The notes beneath the pieces are model-generated. The model saw only the letters and a list, made by a program, of their open reading frames with translations. It searched no databases and had not been told where the DNA came from. Made by a program: the position numbers and the translations under genes. A stretch of DNA of 28,806 bases from IMG/VR virus record IMGVR_UViG_2529292922_000011, one strand, 5' to 3'. Shown here piece by piece: positions 1-28,155 of the stretch. Position 1 is the stretch's first letter. Every line of letters begins with the position of its first letter. This stretch comes from a virus. Its lineage: Duplodnaviria > Heunggongvirae > Uroviricota > Caudoviricetes.

Positions 1-10
1 AGTTATCAGA

Positions 11-40
11 GCCATCAGTACTTAACTGGTGGCTTTTTTT
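11..40 (+). terminator. Rho-independent terminator upstream of the lysis genes (tR'-like late terminator)
   Basis: Inverted repeat gccatcag / ctggtggc (one G-U pair) with 7-nt loop followed by a T7 run; sits directly upstream of the holin, where lambdoid phages place tR'. Confidence 0.4.
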
Positions 41-75
41 ATTGTTGTCAGCTTCCGGATAACGGGAGACGGGGT

Positions 76-291
76 ATGGACCAGATGGAAAAAATCACAA
101 CAGGTGTGTCATACACCACGTCAGCGGTGGGAACGGGCTACTGGTTCCTGCAGTTGCTGGACAGGGTTTCCCCGTCTCAGTGGGCGGCAATAGGCGTGCT
201 GGGGAGTCTGCTGTTTGGGCTGCTGACATATCTGACTAACCTGTATTTCAAAATCAGAGAGGACCGTCGTAAGGCGGCACGGGGAGAGTAA
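76..291 (+). CDS. Class II holin / pinholin, phage 21 S-like, with dual-start motif
   Basis: 71-aa product [11 protein letters not shown]...[24 protein letters not shown]...[13 protein letters not shown] closely matches phage 21 S (recalled from memory); two TM segments; Met codons at positions 1 and 4 as in the S21 antiholin/holin pair; GGAGA RBS upstream. Confidence 0.85.
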
Positions 292-295
292 TTCA

Positions 296-646
296 ATGAC
301 TCAAAACTATGAACTGATTGTGAAAGGGATCCGCAATTTTGAGAATAAAGTTACGGTAACTTTAGCGTTACGGGACAAAAAACGCTTTGACGGTGAAATT
401 TTTGACCTGGACATCTCGCTGGACCGTGTTGAAGGTGCCGCGCTGGAGTTTTATGAGGCAGCAGCCAGAAGGAGCATCAGACAGGTCTTCCTGGATGTTG
501 CTGCCGGGTTATGTGAAGGGGATGAGCAGTCGCCGGAAAAGCGCCCCGTAATTTTAGAGGCGCAGAATGTATGGATAACCTACAAAGGAAAGCTACCGGG
601 AAGAATTACTGGTTCTCTGAAGACTCCTCCGGAATCACAACCTTAA
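296..646 (+). CDS. Hypothetical soluble acidic protein inserted between holin and endolysin
   Basis: 116-aa ORF on the same strand filling the gap between holin and endolysin; no TM segment; no family recognised by eye. Confidence 0.5.
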   Translation: MTQNYELIVKGIRNFENKVTVTLALRDKKRFDGEIFDLDISLDRVEGAALEFYEAAARRSIRQVFLDVAAGLCEGDEQSPEKRPVILEAQNVWITYKGKLPGRITGSLKTPPESQP

Positions 647-709
647 GTCACTGACCGGAACAGATAAACCTGTCCGTGGGCAGAAACCGATAAATCCTGA
701 TAAATATCC

Positions 710-1243
710 ATGAACGCAAAAATCAGATACGGCCTGTCGGCTGCCGTTCTGGCGCTGATTGCCGCTGGTGCGCCTGCGCCTGACATTCTCGACCAGTTTC
801 TGGATGAAAAGGAAGGTAACCACACCACGGCATACCGTGATGGCGCGGGTATCTGGACCATCTGCCGCGGTGCCATCCTGGTGGATGGCAAACCTGTCGT
901 TCCGGGCATGAAGTTGTCGAAGGAAAAATGCGACCGGGTTAACGCCATTGAGCGTGATAAGGCGCTGGCATGGGTGGAGAAAAACATCAAAGTGCCATTG
1001 ACCGAACCCCAGAAAGCGGGGATCGCGTCATTCTGTCCGTACAACATTGGTCCCGGTAAGTGTTTCCCGTCGACGTTTTACAGACGAATTAATGCAGGTG
1101 ATCGCAGGGGAGCATGCGAAGCGATTCGCTGGTGGATTAAGGACGGTGGCAGAGACTGCCGTATTCGCTCAAATAACTGTTACGGTCAGGTATTCCGTCG
1201 TGACCAGGAGAGCGCGCTGGCGTGCTGGGGAATCGACAGATAA
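710..1243 (+). CDS. SAR endolysin (phage lysozyme with N-terminal signal-anchor-release domain)
   Basis: N-terminal Gly/Ala-rich weak TM stretch GLSAAVLALIAAGAPA followed by an E...D...T catalytic arrangement (EKEGNHTTAYRDGAGIWT); pairing with a pinholin is the expected partner arrangement. Confidence 0.85.
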   Translation: MNAKIRYGLSAAVLALIAAGAPAPDILDQFLDEKEGNHTTAYRDGAGIWTICRGAILVDGKPVVPGMKLSKEKCDRVNAIERDKALAWVEKNIKVPLTEPQKAGIASFCPYNIGPGKCFPSTFYRRINAGDRRGACEAIRWWIKDGGRDCRIRSNNCYGQVFRRDQESALACWGIDR

Positions 1244-1337
1244 GCAGAATATTTTGCTGAAAAATGAGGTTGGCCAACGCGGGCGGATAACACGAAGTCC
1301 TGTGAACTGGCAAAACCTAAGTGAATAAAAGTAAAAA

Positions 1338-1372
1338 CCCCGTTTGTTGGCAGCAAGCGGGGTTTTGTTTTT
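1338..1372 (+). terminator. Rho-independent terminator after the endolysin
   Basis: 9-bp stem ccccguuug / caagcgggg (one G-U) with 7-nt loop, followed by ttttgttttt. Confidence 0.55.
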
Positions 1373-1535
1373 ATGGCAGTAAGCTATGGGAGGCTGCCTT
1401 GATTGATTTTAGCAAACTGATTAGGGAGTTGCGACTCATGATTAGTCAATTACCAAACTGGAAATTTTTGCTGGTCTGGAGCATCCCTTTTTTATGGGTA
1501 GTATCCCAGTTAATTGTGGCAATTAAGGGGTAGCT

Positions 1536-1885: not shown

Positions 1886-2380
1886 ATGAACCGTGTTCTG
1901 TGTGTGGTGATTATTGTCATGCTGGTAGCCTGTGGTGTGCTTAGTCTGGGGCTGAATCATTACCGCGATAACGCCATCACCTACAAAGCGCAGCGCGATA
2001 AAAAAGTCAGTGAGCTGAAACTGGCGAATGCCACTATTACTGACATGCAGCAGCGCCAGCGAGATGTCGCTGCGCTTGATGCCAGATACACGAAGGAATT
2101 AGCCGATGCGAGAGCTGAAAATGAAACTCTGCGCGCTGATGTTGCCGCTGGTCGTAAGCGCCTGCGGGTCAACGCCACCTGCCCCGGTACCGTGCGTGAA
2201 GCCACCGGCACCTCCAGCGTGGATAATGCAACCGGCCCCCGACTGGCAGACACCGCTGAACGGGATTATTTCATCCTCAGAGAACGGTTGATGACAATGC
2301 AGAAGCAGCTGGAAGGGGCGCAGGAATATATCCGCACTCAGTGCACTAAGCTGGCTTTTTATTATCCGGAGGATACATGA
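1886..2380 (+). CDS. Rz: Rz i-spanin (inner-membrane spanin subunit)
   Basis: [55 protein letters not shown]... is highly similar to lambda Rz (recalled); N-terminal TM segment plus coiled-coil periplasmic domain. Start is at an internal Met of the longer track ORF 1802..2380. Confidence 0.85.
2106..2291 (+). CDS. Rz1: Rz1 o-spanin (outer-membrane lipoprotein), embedded in Rz in the +1 frame
   Basis: [23 protein letters not shown]...[32 protein letters not shown] matches lambda Rz1, including the lipobox (VVSAC) and proline-rich region; fully nested in Rz. Confidence 0.8.
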
Positions 2381-2799: not shown

Positions 2800-3000
2800 T
2801 CATTTCTCGTTATTTGTCATGCTGGCCGGGCGCAGATGCGTTGCATCTGTTGCCAGCCTTCTCCTGCAGGCTTCAATAACCCACGCTGAAAAGTTACCGG
2901 ACCCTTTATGCTCAAGGGCGATGTTGATCTGTTCAATTATGTGATTGGGGAAACGGATATTGCGGGTTGTGGTTCTGCGGGTCCGGTTTTTCGATGACAT
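2800..3000 (-). CDS. YlcI-like small prophage protein (DUF3950-like)
   Basis: MSSKNRTRRTTTRNIRFPNHIIEQINIALEHKGSGNFSAWVIEACRRRL... resembles the E. coli DLP12 YlcI family found between lysis and terminase genes. I chose the internal Met at 3000 because of the AAAGGAAAT RBS; the track ORF runs to 3060. Confidence 0.55.
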   Translation of the reverse strand: MSSKNRTRRTTTRNIRFPNHIIEQINIALEHKGSGNFSAWVIEACRRRLATDATHLRPASMTNNEK

Positions 3001-3041: not shown

Positions 3042-3407
3042 ATGGCTGAGCTTCGTACACTCCAGAGCAGAATCAAAACACTGAATACCCGACGGGTGAA
3101 TATTCTGAAGGGGGAGCAGCGTCGTGTCAGTGGCAGTGCACGTGTTTCCCTCAAGCGTCATATCTGGCTGAGGGACGCCGGGCAGTGCTGTATCTGTGGT
3201 CGTGTGGTTGACCTCTGTGACAGTGAACTCGATCACCGAATTGCACTTCAGTTCGGTGGTGGTAATGAGGAGACGAATCTTTGGACGCTCTGTGCCGAAT
3301 GCCATCGACAAAAGTCTGCTCGTGAAGCGGCGAGTGGTATGCCGGACCCGACGCTGCCGGAGGTGTCCGGAGGTAGTGGCAGAGAGGACGACATCATCGG
3401 ACTGTAA
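3042..3407 (+). CDS. HNH endonuclease (terminase-associated)
   Basis: Cys-rich HNH core CCICGR...DLCDSELDHRIALQFGGGNEETNLWTLCAECHRQK; lies immediately upstream of the terminase genes, as HNH proteins do in cos-type HK97-like phages. Confidence 0.85.
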   Translation: MAELRTLQSRIKTLNTRRVNILKGEQRRVSGSARVSLKRHIWLRDAGQCCICGRVVDLCDSELDHRIALQFGGGNEETNLWTLCAECHRQKSAREAASGMPDPTLPEVSGGSGREDDIIGL

Positions 3408-21108: not shown

Positions 21109-24100
21109 ATGGGCAAAGGTGGCGGCAAGGCGCACACACCGCGTGAGGCGAAAGACAATCTCAAATCCACGCAGATGATGAGCGTGATTGATGCGATTGG
21201 TGAGGGACCGATAGAAGGCCCGGTGAAAGGCCTGCAGAGTATTCTGGTGAACAAAACCCCGCTGACGGACACGGACGGTAATCCCGTGATACACGGTGTG
21301 ACGGCGGTCTGGCGCGCCGGGGAGCAGGAGCAGACACCACCGGAAGGCTTTGAGTCCTCCGGAGCTGAAACCGGACTGGGCGTGGAAGTGACGAAGGCAA
21401 AGCCGGTAACGCGCACCATTACATCCGCGAACATTGACCGCCTGCGGGTCACCTTCGGGGTGCAGTCACTGTTGGAGACCACCTCAAAGGGCGACCGTAA
21501 TCCCTCTTCTGTCCGACTGCTGATTCAGTTGCAGCGTAACGGTAACTGGGTGACGGAAAAGGATGTCACCATTAACGGCAAGACCACCTCACAGTACCTG
21601 GCGTCGGTGATTCTGGAGAATCTGCCTGAGCGGCCCTTTAACATCCGGATGGTCCGGGAGACAGCGGACAGCACCTCGGACCAGCTGCAGAATAAGACGC
21701 TCTGGTCGTCATACACCGAAATCATCGATGTGAAACAGTGCTACCCGAACACGGCGATTGTGGGGCTGCAGGTGGATGCGGAGCAGTTTGGCGGTCAGCA
21801 GATGACGGTGAACTACCATATCCGAGGTCGCATCATCCAGGTGCCGTCAAACTATGACCCGGAAAAACGCACGTACAGCGGCATCTGGGACGGCAGCCTG
21901 AAACCGGCATACAGCAACAACCCGGCCTGGTGCCTGTGGGACATGCTGACTCACCCGCGCTACGGCATGGGAAAACGTCTGGGGGCGGCAGACGTGGACA
22001 AATGGGCGCTGTATGCCATCGGGCAGTACTGCGACCAGACGGTCCCGGATGGTTTCGGGGGCACAGAGCCGCGGATGACCTTTAATGCGTACCTGTCACA
22101 ACAGCGTAAGGCATGGGATGTGCTCAGTGATTTCTGCTCGGCGATGCGCTGTATGCCGGTATGGAACGGCCAGACGCTGACGTTCGTTCAGGACCGCCCG
22201 TCGGATGTGGTGTGGCCGTACACCAACTGCGATGTGGTGGTGGATGATAACGGCGTGGGGTTTCGCTACAGCTTCAGCGCCCTGAAGGACCGCCACACGG
22301 CGGTGGAGGTGAATTACACCGACCCGCAGAACGGCTGGCAGACCTCCACGGAACTGGTGGAAGACCCGGAAGCCATACTGCGCTACGGGCGCAACCTGCT
22401 GAAGATGGATGCGTTCGGTTGCACCAGTCGCGGTCAGGCCCACCGTGCCGGGCTGTGGGTGATAAAGACCGGACTGCTGGAAACGCAGACGGTGGATTTC
22501 ACGCTCGGGTCACAGGGGCTGCGTCACACACCCGGTGACATTATTGAAATCTGTGATAACGACTATGCCGGGACCATGACCGGCGGACGTATCCTGTCCA
22601 TCGATGCCGCCAGCCGCACCCTGACACTGGACCGTGAGGTGACCCTGCCGGAGACAGGTGCCGCCACGGTGAACCTGATTAACGGCAGCGGTAAGCCGGT
22701 GAGCGTGGCCATCACCGAACACCCCGCGCCGGACCGGATACAGGTCAGTACCCTGCCTGATGGTGTGGAGACATACGGGGTGTGGGGACTCTCCCTGCCG
22801 TCACTGCGCCGTCGCCTGTTCCGCTGTGTCTCCGTCCGGGAAAACACGGACGGCACCTTTGCCATCACGGCGGTGCAGCACGTACCGGAAAAAGAAGCCA
22901 TCGTGGATAACGGTGCCCGCTTTGAGCCGCAGTCAGGTTCCCTGAACAGCGTCATCCCACCGGCAGTGCAGCACCTGACGGTGGAGGTGAGCGCAGCTGA
23001 CGGCCAGTATCTGGCGCAGGCGAAATGGGACACGCCGCGGGTGGTGAAGGGTGTGCGCTTCAGTCTGCGCCTGACCAGTGGTAAGGGAACGGATGCCAGA
23101 CTGGTGACCACCGCCATCACCGCAGACACGGAGCACCGTTTCAGCGGCCTGCCGCTCGGGGAATACACCCTGACGGTGCGGGCGATAAACAGCTATGGCC
23201 AGCAGGGTGAACCTGCCACCACCACCTTCCGGATTGCCGCACCGGCAGCACCGTCGCGGATTGAGCTGACGCCGGGCTATTTTCAGATAACCGCCACGCC
23301 GCATCTTGCCGTTTATGACCCGACGGTACAGTTTGAGTTCTGGTTCTCGGAAAAGCGGATTGCGGATATCAGGCAGGTTGAAACCGCAGCCCGCTATCTT
23401 GGCTCGGCGCTGTACTGGATAGCTGCCAGTATCAATATCAAACCGGGCCATGATTATTATTTTTATATCCGCAGTGTGAATACTGTTGGCAAATCGGCAT
23501 TTGTGGAGGCTGTTGGCCAGCCGAGTGATGATGCATCCGGCTATCTGGATTTTTTCAAAGGAGAGATAGGGAAAACCCATCTGGCTCAGGAGTTGTGGAC
23601 GCAGATTGATAACGGTCAGCTTGCGCCTGATCTGGCTGAAATCAGGACGTCCATTACGAATGTCAGCAATGAAATCACGCAGACCGTCAATAAAAAACTG
23701 GAAAATCAGAGCGCGGCAATCCAGCAGATACAGAAAGTTCAGGTTGATACAAATAATAACCTGAACAGCATGTGGGCCGTGAAACTGCAGCAGATGAAGG
23801 ACGGACGCCTTTATATTGCGGGTATCGGAGCCGGTATTGAGAATACGCCAGCAGGTATGCAGAGTCAGGTGCTTCTGGCTGCTGACCGGATTGCGATGAT
23901 TAATCCTGCGAATGGCAACACAAAGCCGATGTTTGTTGGTCAGGGCGATCAGATATTCATGAACGAAGTGTTCCTGAAATACCTGACGGCTCCCACCATT
24001 ACCAGTGGCGGTAATCCTCCGGCATTTTCCCTGACACCGGACGGGCGGCTGACGGCGAAAAATGCCGATATCAGCGGTAACGTGAATGCGAACTCCGGGA

Positions 24101-25400: not shown

Positions 25401-26704
25401 ATGACAGTAAAAATTTCTGGCGTGCTTAAAGATGGCACAGGAAAACCAGTACAGAACTGCACCATTGTGCTGAAGGCCAGACGAACCAGCAGCACGGTGG
25501 TGGTGAACACGGTGGCCTCTGAAAATCCGGATGAAGCCGGACGTTACAGCATGGATGTTGAGCATGGTCAGTACAGCGTCACCCTGCTGGTTGAAGGTTT
25601 TCCGCCTTCACATGCCGGGACCATTACCGTCTATGAAGGTTCCAGACCAGGTACGCTGAATGATTTTCTCGGTGCCATGACGGAGGATGATGTCCGACCG
25701 GAGGCACTGCGTCGTTTTGAACTGATGGTGGAAGAAGCGGCGCGTCACGCTGAGGAGGCGAAGAAGAATGCCGGAGAGGCGGAGACGTCCGCGAGGAATG
25801 CCGGCATATCAGCCAGTCAGGCAGAAGAGAGCGCTGCAAATGCTGACACTTCAGCAGGGGATGCATCGGAGTCAGCCCGGCAGGCGGCAGAAAGTGCAGC
25901 CGCTGCAAAGCAGTCAGAGGAGGCGTCCTCGTCCTCGGCCTCTGCGGCTGCTCAAAAAGCCAGTGAGTCATCACAAAGTGCAGCAGATGCTGAGTTGTCA
26001 AAAAAGACGGCAGAAAGTGCAGCCGGTAATGCAGCCAGGGATGCAACGACCGCAACAGAAAAAGCCCGGGAGTCAGCAGAAAGCGCACAGTCAGCGGAAC
26101 AAAGCAGGATAGCGGCGGAAGAAGCCGTAAACCGAATCCCGACCGTGGTGGGGCCTCCCGGGCCAAAGGGGGAACCGGGGCCCGCGGGTCCTCAGGGGCC
26201 GAAGGGAGATAAAGGAGAGCGTGGCGACACCGGCCCGGCAGGGGCAACCGGCGAACGGGGACCGGCAGGTGATGCTGGTCCGGCAGGCCCGCAGGGGCCG
26301 AAAGGTGACAGGGGAGAGCGGGGAGAGACCGGTCTGACGGGAAATGCAGGTCCACAGGGTCCAAAGGGAGATACCGGTGCGGCAGGCCCGGCAGGCCCAC
26401 AGGAGAAACAGGTGCGGCTGGCCCGGTGGGGGCAACCGGACCTCAGGGACCGAAGGGCGACCCGGGGGAGACACAAATCCGTTTTCGTCTGGGGCCGGCG
26501 AGCATTATTGAGACAAACAGCAATGGCTGGTTCCCGGATACAGATGGCGCACTCATCACCGGACTGACCTTTCTTGACCCCAAAGATGCCACACAGGTTC
26601 AGGGGCTGTTTCGGCATTTGCAGGTCAGGTTTGGTGACGGGCCGTGGCAGGATGTTAAGGGGCTGGATGAAGTGGGCAGTGATACAGGCAGAACAGGAGA
26701 ATGA
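25401..26704 (+). pseudogene. Side tail fibre protein (lambda Stf-like N-terminus, collagen-like repeats), interrupted by a 1-nt deletion
   Basis: N-terminus [28 protein letters not shown]...[15 protein letters not shown] matches lambda Stf (recalled); Ser/Ala-rich region; Gly-X-Y collagen repeats from ~26150. The Gly-X-Y periodicity breaks at 26400-26403 and resumes in the -1 frame, which continues to the stop at 26704. Confidence 0.75.
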
Positions 26705-26705
26705 C

Positions 26706-26975
26706 ATGAATATACTAAAAAAACTTATGCAGCGTCTGTGCGGGTACGGAAAGCATGATGACCGTGAACACGGGGAGTTACTTACAGCACAACTGCGTCT
26801 GGGACCGGCAGACATTCTGGAGTCAGATGAGAATGGCATTATTCCGGAGCAGGACAGGGTAATCACGCAGGTGGTGATACTGGATGCAGATAAAAAGCAG
26901 ATACAATGCGTGGTAAGACCGTTGCAAATTCTGCGTGCTGACGGGACGTGGGAAAATATTGGCGGGATGAAGTAA
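26706..26975 (+). CDS. Hypothetical protein resembling the fibre C-terminal domain (alternative fibre-tip cassette or tfa-position gene)
   Basis: 89 aa from ATG 26706 (track ORF starts earlier at 26574); LRLGPADILESDENGIIPEQDRVITQVVILDADKKQIQCVVRPLQILRADGTWENIGG aligns with the fibre C-terminus [62 protein letters not shown]. Confidence 0.4.
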   Translation: MNILKKLMQRLCGYGKHDDREHGELLTAQLRLGPADILESDENGIIPEQDRVITQVVILDADKKQIQCVVRPLQILRADGTWENIGGMK

Positions 26976-26993
26976 CCCGACAGCTTCACAAAA

Positions 26994-27015
26994 CCGGAGT
27001 CCGGCTCCGGTTTTT
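26994..27015 (+). terminator. Rho-independent terminator ending the tail fibre region
   Basis: ccggag / cuccgg stem with 5-nt loop followed by T5. Confidence 0.55.
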
Positions 27016-27130
27016 GTTGTCATGTATAGGGGATATTTGTTATTAGAGTGTGAAGTAATAAACATGTTAATACGATGGTAACCGGCTCATTTAAACCGTC
27101 TGGTCTGTTTCCTCCGGCTCTACAAAAATA

Positions 27131-27808
27131 ATGTCCATCATTTTTAATGGACACTATCGTATGAAACACCGGACCTGGATCACTGAAGCTTTACGTCTTC
27201 ACTTTGAAGAACATTTACCCCGGGTTGTGGCCGGGCGTCGCCTGGGTGTACCAAAATCAACAGTTTGTAGTATGTTCGTGCGCTTTCGGAGAGCTGGCCT
27301 TTCGTGGCCTTTGCCCGCAGGCATGTCGGAGCAGGAACTTGATGCCTGCCTTTACGGACAATTTTCCACGGTACCAGTCGTACGTCCTGAAAGCACCGTT
27401 ATATCCGAAGCCCCCGTGGTAAAAAAACGTCCTCGGCGGCCCAACTTCCCTTATGAGTTTAAAATCGCCTTAGTGGAGCAGTCACTGCAGCCCGGAGCCT
27501 GTGTGGCGCAGATCGCCCGGGAAAACGGAATCAACGATAACCTGCTCTTCAACTGGCGCCATCAATACCGGAAAGGTGGCCTGCTGCCTTCCGGAAAAAA
27601 TATGCCGGCACTGCTTCCCGTGACGTTAACGCCGGAGCCGGATAATAAAATCCCGGCCCCCGCACAGGAACCAGAGCAGATAAATACACCGTCCGACAGT
27701 CTGTGTTGTGAGCTGGTTCTGCCGGCCGGAACTCTCAGGCTTAAAGGTAAACTGACGCCGGCGTTATTACAGACACTTATCCGCGAAATAAAAGGGAGCA
27801 GCCACTGA
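27131..27808 (+). CDS. IS66-family TnpA-like protein (orf1) with N-terminal extension
   Basis: C-terminal half (KKRPRRPNFPYEFKIALVEQSLQPGACVAQIARENGINDNLLFNWRHQYRKG ... LPAGTLRLKG) fits IS66 orf1; real start may be an internal Met; stop overlaps the tnpB start. Confidence 0.55.
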   Translation: MSIIFNGHYRMKHRTWITEALRLHFEEHLPRVVAGRRLGVPKSTVCSMFVRFRRAGLSWPLPAGMSEQELDACLYGQFSTVPVVRPESTVISEAPVVKKRPRRPNFPYEFKIALVEQSLQPGACVAQIARENGINDNLLFNWRHQYRKGGLLPSGKNMPALLPVTLTPEPDNKIPAPAQEPEQINTPSDSLCCELVLPAGTLRLKGKLTPALLQTLIREIKGSSH

Positions 27809-28155
27809 TGATATCTCTCCCTGCAGGTTCGCGTATCTGGCTGGTTGCAGGTATCACCGATATGCGAAATGGCTTTAACGGCCTGGCATCAAAAGTTCAG
27901 AACGTCCTGAAGGATGACCCGTTCTCCGGACACCTGTTCATCTTCCGCGGACGCCGGGGTGACCAGATAAAAGTGTTGTGGGCTGACAGTGACGGACTGT
28001 GCCTCTTCACCAAACGCCTGGAGCGGGGCCGCTTCGTCTGGCCAGTCACCCGTGACGGCAAGGTGCACCTTACTCCGGCTCAGTTATCCATGCTTCTTGA
28101 AGGTATCAACTGGAAGCACCCGAAACGAACGGAACGCGCTGGAATCCGCATATAA
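27808..28155 (+). CDS. IS66-family accessory protein TnpB (orf2)
   Basis: MISLPAGSRIWLVAGITDMRNGFNGLASKVQNVLKDDPFSGHLFIFRGRRGDQIKVLWADSDGLCLFTKRLERGRFVWP is the canonical IS66 orf2 sequence pattern. Confidence 0.85.
   Translation: MISLPAGSRIWLVAGITDMRNGFNGLASKVQNVLKDDPFSGHLFIFRGRRGDQIKVLWADSDGLCLFTKRLERGRFVWPVTRDGKVHLTPAQLSMLLEGINWKHPKRTERAGIRI

Follow-up and report, generated by a model that had tools for sequence, protein, structure and literature searches.

What does a small soluble protein do when its gene stands inside a phage lysis cassette, between the holin and the endolysin? This question is raised by IMG/VR record IMGVR_UViG_2529292922_000011, a stretch of 28,806 nucleotides from a virus of the class Caudoviricetes (the whole stretch is referred to here as the window). 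An open reading frame (ORF) at 296-646 (+) begins with ATG and encodes 116 amino acids. The initial annotation had placed this ORF between an S21-type holin and a signal-anchor-release (SAR) endolysin, and the placement is borne out by a full-length Pfam match for the ORF product, a PF04971 match for the holin, and a Phage_lysozyme match for the endolysin. The ORF is a real gene and more than a chance reading frame, because its product has the full-length Pfam match and 320 relatives. Its identity as ydfR, a late cargo gene of the YdfR/DUF1327 family, is essentially certain.

The 116-residue protein matches the Pfam family PF07041 (DUF1327) with 145.1 bits against a cutoff of 25 (E = 7.5e-43), and its residues 1-112 align with positions 1-92 of the 93-position profile. 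PHROG 406/2091, both of unknown function, match it at E ~1e-68, and a scan of NCBIfam gave no model match to the ORF. The first 2.4 kb of the window are 100% identical to a lambdoid prophage of Escherichia coli O127:H6 E2348/69 (NC_011601.1), where RefSeq labels exactly the same coding sequence WP_000193280.1, 'YdfR family protein'. The family had been taken as unrecognised; it is in fact already catalogued and ordinary as a finding. DUF1327 is a known family common in cassettes of this kind, though it is not a characterised lysis-accessory family. The scan of the window has therefore found a catalogued family in its usual place and no new element.

The closest point of reference is YdfR of E. 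coli K-12 (b1555, P76160), encoded by the cryptic prophage Qin. The two proteins share the same N-terminal domain and family, with 60 of 74 residues identical (81%) and 96% similar over residues 1-74 (E = 2e-46). Beyond residue 74 they diverge fully, and the C-terminus of K-12 YdfR is unrelated. The gene order in Qin is essQ-ydfR-rrrQ-rzpQ/rzoQ, and ydfR likewise starts 4 nucleotides past the holin stop codon. The window protein was described at the outset as soluble and acidic. The first part stands, since no hydrophobic or membrane segment was found (maximum 19-residue Kyte-Doolittle average 0.69; grand average of hydropathicity -0.4), and no signal-like N-terminus is present by inspection. 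The acidity is only mild, with an isoelectric point of 5.55 and 18 acidic and 17 basic residues. Pairwise comparison with diverged alleles gives ratios of nonsynonymous to synonymous substitution (dN/dS) of 0.23-0.46 for codons 1-75 and 0.15-0.54 for codons 76-112.

How the gene came to lie at this position can be read from the holin end. The S21-type class II holin (pinholin type, 71 amino acids) is encoded at 76-291 (+); it matches PF04971 'Bacteriophage P21 holin S' (E = 9e-33) and phrog_9876/20 (holin), and RefSeq names it 'class II holin family protein'. The stop codon of the holin gene occupies 289-291, and the ATG of ydfR follows 4 nucleotides past it. A Shine-Dalgarno (SD) sequence, GGGGAGAG, lies at 281-288 (+) within the last holin codons and pairs with the anti-SD at -8.1 kcal/mol. 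In an alignment, the junction GGAGAG-TAA-4 nt-ATG at the holin end is common to the window, to VT2-Sakai (933W type), and to K-12 Qin. The holin of VT2-Sakai is 97% identical to that of the window and ends in the same GGGGAGAG-TAA-4 nt-ATG. The ATG of this junction is the endolysin start in VT2-Sakai and the ydfR start in the window and in K-12 Qin. Judged from this alignment, ydfR is a clean insertion at the holin-endolysin junction that has taken over the holin-embedded ribosome-binding site.

Two details of the initial annotation change with this result. A GGAGAG-like ribosome-binding site is present as described; however, it lies inside the holin codons, and it is the ATG, not the site, that stands 4 nucleotides past the stop. 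Nor is the site the gene's own, as it serves ydfR here and the endolysin in cassettes without ydfR. The suggestion that the gene might be an indel agrees with the synteny comparison, in which VT2-Sakai/933W and K-12 DLP12 have the holin gene S directly followed by the endolysin gene R. In these cassettes without ydfR, the junction ATG belongs to the endolysin, and the 5' end of R and its leader differ from the Qin type. The Rz/Rz1 organisation of VT2-Sakai and of DLP12 (essD-rrrD) is as in the window.

The insertion leaves R in a different translational setting, and this displacement of the holin-embedded ribosome-binding site from the endolysin is one of two points added here. The holin-embedded SD precedes ydfR in all seven ydfR cassettes examined, with pairing of -8.1 to -9.1 kcal/mol. 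The seventh, phiSTEC1575-Stx2k, is without an R of this type; 5' of R in the other six, no anti-SD pairing was found, and a conserved leader, CCTGATAAATATCC, is present instead. In the window, the spacer between ydfR and the endolysin gene spans 647-709 (+), and the SD-less leader occupies 696-709. This leader occurs in 97 phage records, compared with 101 records that have YdfR; in the remaining records that match R, the similarity starts inside the R coding region. A direct repeat of GATAAAT, at 689-695 and 699-705, is also seen 5' of the endolysin gene.

The proposal that the ORF is a cargo gene in a late-transcribed slot has held up. No promoter-like site was found between positions 1 and 700, and the G+C content of ydfR is 47%, compared with 54-55% for the holin and endolysin genes. 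Terminator-like hairpins flank the whole S-ydfR-R block and not ydfR alone. The upstream edge, directly 5' of the holin gene, is a hairpin with a T-run at 8-46 (+), with a 12-pair stem at 8-36 followed by TTTTATTGTT. The downstream edge, 3' of the endolysin gene, is a strong terminator-like hairpin at 1334-1376 (+), with a 15-pair stem followed by GTTTTTATGG. Both hairpins fall within what is expected to be a single Q-antiterminated late transcript. Like the lambdoid morons bor and lom, ydfR is accessory, lower in G+C than its neighbours, and variably present, and its homologues occupy classic tail-region insertion slots. Classical morons differ in having their own promoter and terminator and in being expressed from the prophage, whereas ydfR relies on the late transcript and the holin SD. 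The gene was considered as a classical moron, that is, an autonomous transcription unit, and this was rejected on the lack of a promoter-like site in 1-700 and on the position of the hairpins.

The arrangement is a frequent cassette variant and not an anomaly. ydfR-like DNA is present in 4349 of 5426 complete E. coli genomes (~80%), with 8617 occurrences in all and as many as 10 in one genome. Of the 427 records in the phage collection that have this type of holin, 101, about a quarter, also have a YdfR homologue. Viable phages are among the carriers, mEp460 for example, as are many phages of the Stx1a and Stx2c types. Both arrangements occur in K-12 itself: Qin has ydfR, and in DLP12 rrrD comes directly after essD. 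The initial view that holin and endolysin genes are normally adjacent, and that an intervening gene is an oddity, is not supported by these counts or by Qin. In Escherichia and Shigella, ydfR starts 3-4 nucleotides past the stop of an S21-type holin in every locus inspected, and the window shares the position of this clade, between an essQ-type holin and an rrrQ-type endolysin.

Outside this clade the position of the domain varies. A profile search of 1.84 billion representative proteins returned 86 clusters only. These include free-standing proteins of 72-76 residues at ~25-35% identity, and the organisms named as sources of members are Sodalis ligni, Serratia sp., Cronobacter malonaticus, and Yersinia mollaretii. 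Even at ~25% identity, residues Y5, Y53, and E54 vary little or not at all. The genes of distant homologues lie between tail genes L and K (loci L003-L008), between tail genes M and L (Sodalis ligni L010, and L024), between a tail chaperone (DUF1799) and the tape measure (metagenome contig L020; the protein is named in Serratia sp.), and directly after Rz (L012, in a cluster that includes a Cronobacter protein). A tandem two-domain relative of 176 amino acids is encoded upstream of a holin (L022). Every one of these genes shares the strand of the late genes. The gap to the preceding gene is at most ~30 nucleotides, or the two genes overlap, in five of the six contexts; at the Sodalis locus it is ~600 nucleotides. 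The homologues in tail modules have no holin nearby. Because the homologues occupy varied late slots, activity of the domain cannot depend on an adjoining holin or endolysin. The DUF1327 domain is thus, from its genomic contexts, portable late-operon cargo and not a dedicated lysis factor. This portability is the second point added here.

Several observations concern the neighbours of these distant genes. A convergent small gene is often found 3' of DUF1327 genes. The convergent genes of 182 and 186 codons (L003:4273-4821(-), L007:4273-4821(-), and L012:768-1328(-)) belong to phrog_18578 and are homologous (42% identity, E = 1e-48); neither Pfam nor PADLOC gave a match for them. The occurrence of the phrog_18578 gene both in the tail L/K slot and after Rz suggests that it and the DUF1327 gene have moved between late slots as a two-gene cassette. 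A universal two-gene module was rejected, as only the 182/186-residue pair is homologous among the convergent small genes. In L022, the P0191 gene lies between a DUF4406 gene and a different holin type, and genes for ParE, HicA/HicB, and a helix-turn-helix protein lie between Q and the lysis genes.

The conserved part of the protein is its N-terminal domain, codons 1-73 (296-514 (+)). An AlphaFold2 model of the full 116 residues has a mean predicted local distance difference test score (pLDDT) of 59, with the C-terminal 48 residues below 50. When residues 1-76 were modelled on a deeper and more diverse alignment, the mean pLDDT rose to 92.3 with a predicted template modelling score of 0.78. 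The predicted core has three antiparallel strands (residues 5-14, 18-27, and 34-43) followed by a long helix (50-71). A sequence-profile search of the PDB with the family alignment gave no match, so no solved structure is available for the family, and a Foldseek search against BFVD gave no match at E <= 0.001. The modelled core (residues 4-71) appears to be a generic three-strand-plus-helix unit without a specific structural relative. Weak fold matches lean to nucleic-acid-binding units of this shape, namely double-stranded-RNA-binding domains (dsRBDs) and halves of the RNase H-like fold; this lean is suggestive only. Membership in the dsRBD family was rejected. Compared with the dsRBDs of PKR, ADAR, TRBP, Staufen, and RNase III, YdfR is without the first dsRBD helix, has 7-14% identity, and scores in the range of generic motifs. 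The tandem proteins P0191 (L022:4001-4531) and P0198 are 170-176 amino acids long and have two DUF1327-like domains per chain, which hints that the core unit may work as a dimer.

The C-terminal part varies between alleles. In the window, codons 74-116 and the stop codon (515-646 (+)) encode a variant-specific module (EKRPVILEAQNVWITYKGKLPGRITGSLKTPP...), a 43-residue EKRP...KTPP segment with pLDDT below 50, and 63 nucleotides separate it from R. K-12 YdfR has 103 residues with a 30-residue tail, and its stop codon overlaps the R start as ATGA. Between the window and the alleles of Shiga-toxin (Stx) phages, ydfR is a mosaic: synonymous divergence (dS) is 0.8-2.0 in the first 75 codons compared with 0.16-0.3 in the C-terminal module. 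In the alignment, divergence from the Stx-phage alleles is concentrated in the first ~45 codons. Residues 26-37 (371-406), in the loop between strands 2 and 3, alternate between unrelated versions, RDKKRFDGEIFD against EIGGYPSLLLPD.

Longer alleles are also found. YdfR proteins of 176-287 amino acids (L014:2501-3136, L017:1501-2307, P0021, and P0131) carry one or two extra C-terminal modules that match phrog_1085/2091. No Pfam domain was found in these extensions or in their neighbours, which match only PHROGs of unknown function, and the domain fusions are for this reason uninformative on function. Between a long allele and the endolysin gene there is often a small convergent gene, and the S-R junction is therefore a hot spot for variable cargo. 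In phiSTEC1575-Stx2k (L016, 1281-3299), an S21-type holin gene and ydfR come first, and behind them lie two small convergent genes, then a further holin pair and a gene for an M15 metallopeptidase. The metallopeptidase replaces the SAR lysozyme in what is apparently a hybrid lysis region, located just after stx2.

Direct evidence on function comes from K-12 YdfR. A two-hybrid library yielded YdfR as residues 1-72, which interacts with the catalytic N-terminal half of RNase E (Rne 1-597) and more weakly with RNase G (PMC13232886, RNA Biol 2026). FLAG-tagged Rne 1-598 co-elutes with Strep-YdfR, and the Strep-YdfR eluate is rich in DNase-resistant nucleic acid (PMC13232886). The K-12 gene is silent, with almost no reads under standard growth (PMC13232886). 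This paper appears not to tie the RNase E link to the place of ydfR in the phage late operon. The fragment 1-72 is exactly the conserved DUF1327 domain. In the literature found, no other direct functional data on YdfR exist; two screens list ydfR. One is an overexpression screen with a 3-fold increase in the minimum inhibitory concentration of streptomycin. The other is an envelope-integrity screen, in which the ydfR knockout is among the genes of the supplementary tables only and not in the main text (PMC3879167).

Taken with its position, these data lead to the following proposal. ydfR is an accessory cargo gene that lambdoid prophages carry precisely where the holin and endolysin genes meet. 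It would be transcribed as part of the Q-dependent late operon, and its translation would start from the ribosome-binding site at the 3' end of the holin gene. Its product would be a soluble cytoplasmic protein whose working part is the conserved 70-residue three-strand-plus-helix domain. The most probable site of action of this domain is a target in the host cytoplasm, rather than the lysis machinery. Among candidate targets, the N-terminal catalytic half of RNase E, perhaps along with RNA, has the best support, and YdfR would then modulate RNA decay or processing late in infection. The odds are somewhat below even that the domain of this late, cytoplasmic protein binds RNase E and/or RNA and modulates RNA metabolism late in infection. 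We infer that the window allele acts as its K-12 orthologue does and that the interaction matters in phage growth, and likewise the direction of its action.

A number of points weigh against this proposal. The RNase E link comes from one study of the K-12 orthologue, and the co-purification with YdfR, carried out without nuclease treatment, could be bridged by RNA. Overproduction of YdfR changed few transcripts and left growth unaffected, and full-length T25-YdfR scored only with Rne 1-597 (PMC13232886). The proposal does not account for the conserved C-terminal module of the window allele. Finally, the constant position of ydfR behind an S21-type holin in Escherichia may indicate a holin-related role for this clade.

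This last point is an argument for a different role, a regulator of lysis timing, in which YdfR would be a cytoplasmic partner of the pinholin (for example, of its basic C-terminal tail) or of the SAR endolysin. The adjacency to the holin persists even in phiSTEC1575-Stx2k, where the next lysis genes are of other types, and the ydfR knockout appears in the envelope-integrity screen. That listing, however, could arise if the resistance cassette is polar on the endolysin gene behind it. About three-quarters of phage records with this holin have no ydfR, overexpression has no growth effect in K-12, and the tail-module homologues lack a nearby holin. The features expected of an antiholin or lysis regulator are also lacking: the protein has no transmembrane segment or periplasmic signal, and there is no obligate linkage to holin or endolysin across the family. 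The role as a lysis regulator, which had been raised when the gene was first noticed, is weakened by the distant homologues in tail modules and other late slots and is improbable. YdfR might instead act on endolysin translation, where ydfR takes the holin-embedded SD, and YdfR as an RNA binder, or its translation alone, sets the amount of R. The R gene of VT2-Sakai uses this SD, R in ydfR cassettes has the conserved leader and no anti-SD pairing, the leader and YdfR occur in nearly the same number of phage records, the stop and start codons overlap in K-12, and RNA co-purifies with YdfR. Against this, the leader and ydfR may be linked only through the shared ancestry of one cassette lineage, the 63 nucleotides between the ydfR stop and the R start in the window are too far for coupling, and the tail-slot homologues have no endolysin gene downstream. 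Control of R, which only linkage supports, is no better a prospect than control of lysis timing.

A third possibility keeps the host or a competitor as the site of action and changes the target. YdfR would then be a counter-defence or host-takeover protein, a small late inhibitor of a host or competitor enzyme other than RNase E. A small mobile domain in many late slots, often beside unrelated small convergent genes, is consistent with this, as are the mosaic alleles with their highly variable residues 26-37 and the weak similarity in fold to T7 Gp1.2, which inhibits the host dGTPase. The defence or anti-defence role suggested at the outset is not supported by PADLOC-DB, which has no match for the window protein, the long variants, or the convergent neighbours. 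A late inhibitor of this kind, with a target other than RNase E, is unlikely, although it deserves some weight. Very improbable is the idea that ydfR is dispensable filler, a selfish or decaying ORF kept because it is linked to the lysis genes. In favour of this, databases contain many versions that are frameshifted, truncated, or fused, and K-12 Qin is a cryptic prophage. Purely decaying DNA would not be expected to show dN/dS of 0.15-0.54, to conserve, down to ~25% identity among Enterobacterales, a domain of confident fold in which Y5, Y53, and E54 are invariant, or to be carried by viable phages such as mEp460.

Binding of RNase E would place YdfR in known company. Phage proteins that act on RNase E include T4 Srd, T7 gp0.7, and phiKZ Dip, and the part of RNase E that T4 Srd binds is its N-terminal half, as is reported for YdfR. 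If the binding of RNase E by YdfR is biologically relevant, these proteins would be analogues in outcome; they are not known to be related to YdfR in sequence or fold. A broader proposal, which is doubtful, would make YdfR the temperate lambdoid counterpart of these RNase E-targeting proteins of virulent phages. Its late RNA- and RNase E-binding domain, probably a dimer, would reshape how late transcripts decay or are translated, the SD-less endolysin message possibly among them, and would couple RNA metabolism to lysis timing or yield. The same domain would be reused as portable cargo of tail and lysis slots across Enterobacterales.

The remainder of the lysis region is composed of known elements and further small genes. 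The holin start (76-87) has two candidate start codons, Met1 and Met4 (MDQM), and the 3-residue extension contains Asp and no positive charge; it is unlike the S21 antiholin form, which begins MKSM. The SAR-type endolysin, annotated rrrQ, is encoded at 710-1243 (+), has 177 amino acids, and matches PF00959 (Phage_lysozyme). Direct reading of its sequence gives a Gly/Ala-rich hydrophobic stretch at the N-terminus and shows E35/D44/T50 where R21 has its catalytic triad. The Rz spanin is encoded at 1886-2380 (+) (PF03245; PHROG), and Rz1 is embedded in it at 2106-2291 (+) (PF06085). Between endolysin and Rz is a segment of ~640 bp (1244-1885) with 46% G+C, which opens with the hairpin region at 1334-1376. 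It contains three small hydrophobic ORFs, at 1536-1667 (43 amino acids), 1631-1786 (51 amino acids), and 1798-1884 (28 amino acids), which PHROGs 4906 and 3246/1115/4493 of unknown function match. This segment is a second cargo slot within the lysis cassette, and ant lies there in VT2-Sakai.

Downstream, a hypothetical gene of 74 codons (2377-2601) overlaps the Rz stop codon. Just 5' of the terminase small subunit gene are a YlcI/YnfO gene (2800-3000, reverse strand) and an HNH endonuclease gene (3042-3407). Classic lysogen-expressed cargo is also present in the window. An Ail/Lom-family outer-membrane protein is encoded after gpJ at 23090-23689 (+), and the type III effector gene nleA lies at the far end of the prophage, at 26634-27956 (-).

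Many Shiga-toxin phages and ~80% of complete E. coli genomes have ydfR-like genes, which lie in the middle of the lysis cassette. Together, the RNase E link, the portability of the cargo, and the displaced ribosome-binding site raise the question of whether manipulation of RNase E, or of the translation of endolysin, is part of what temperate phages do late in infection.
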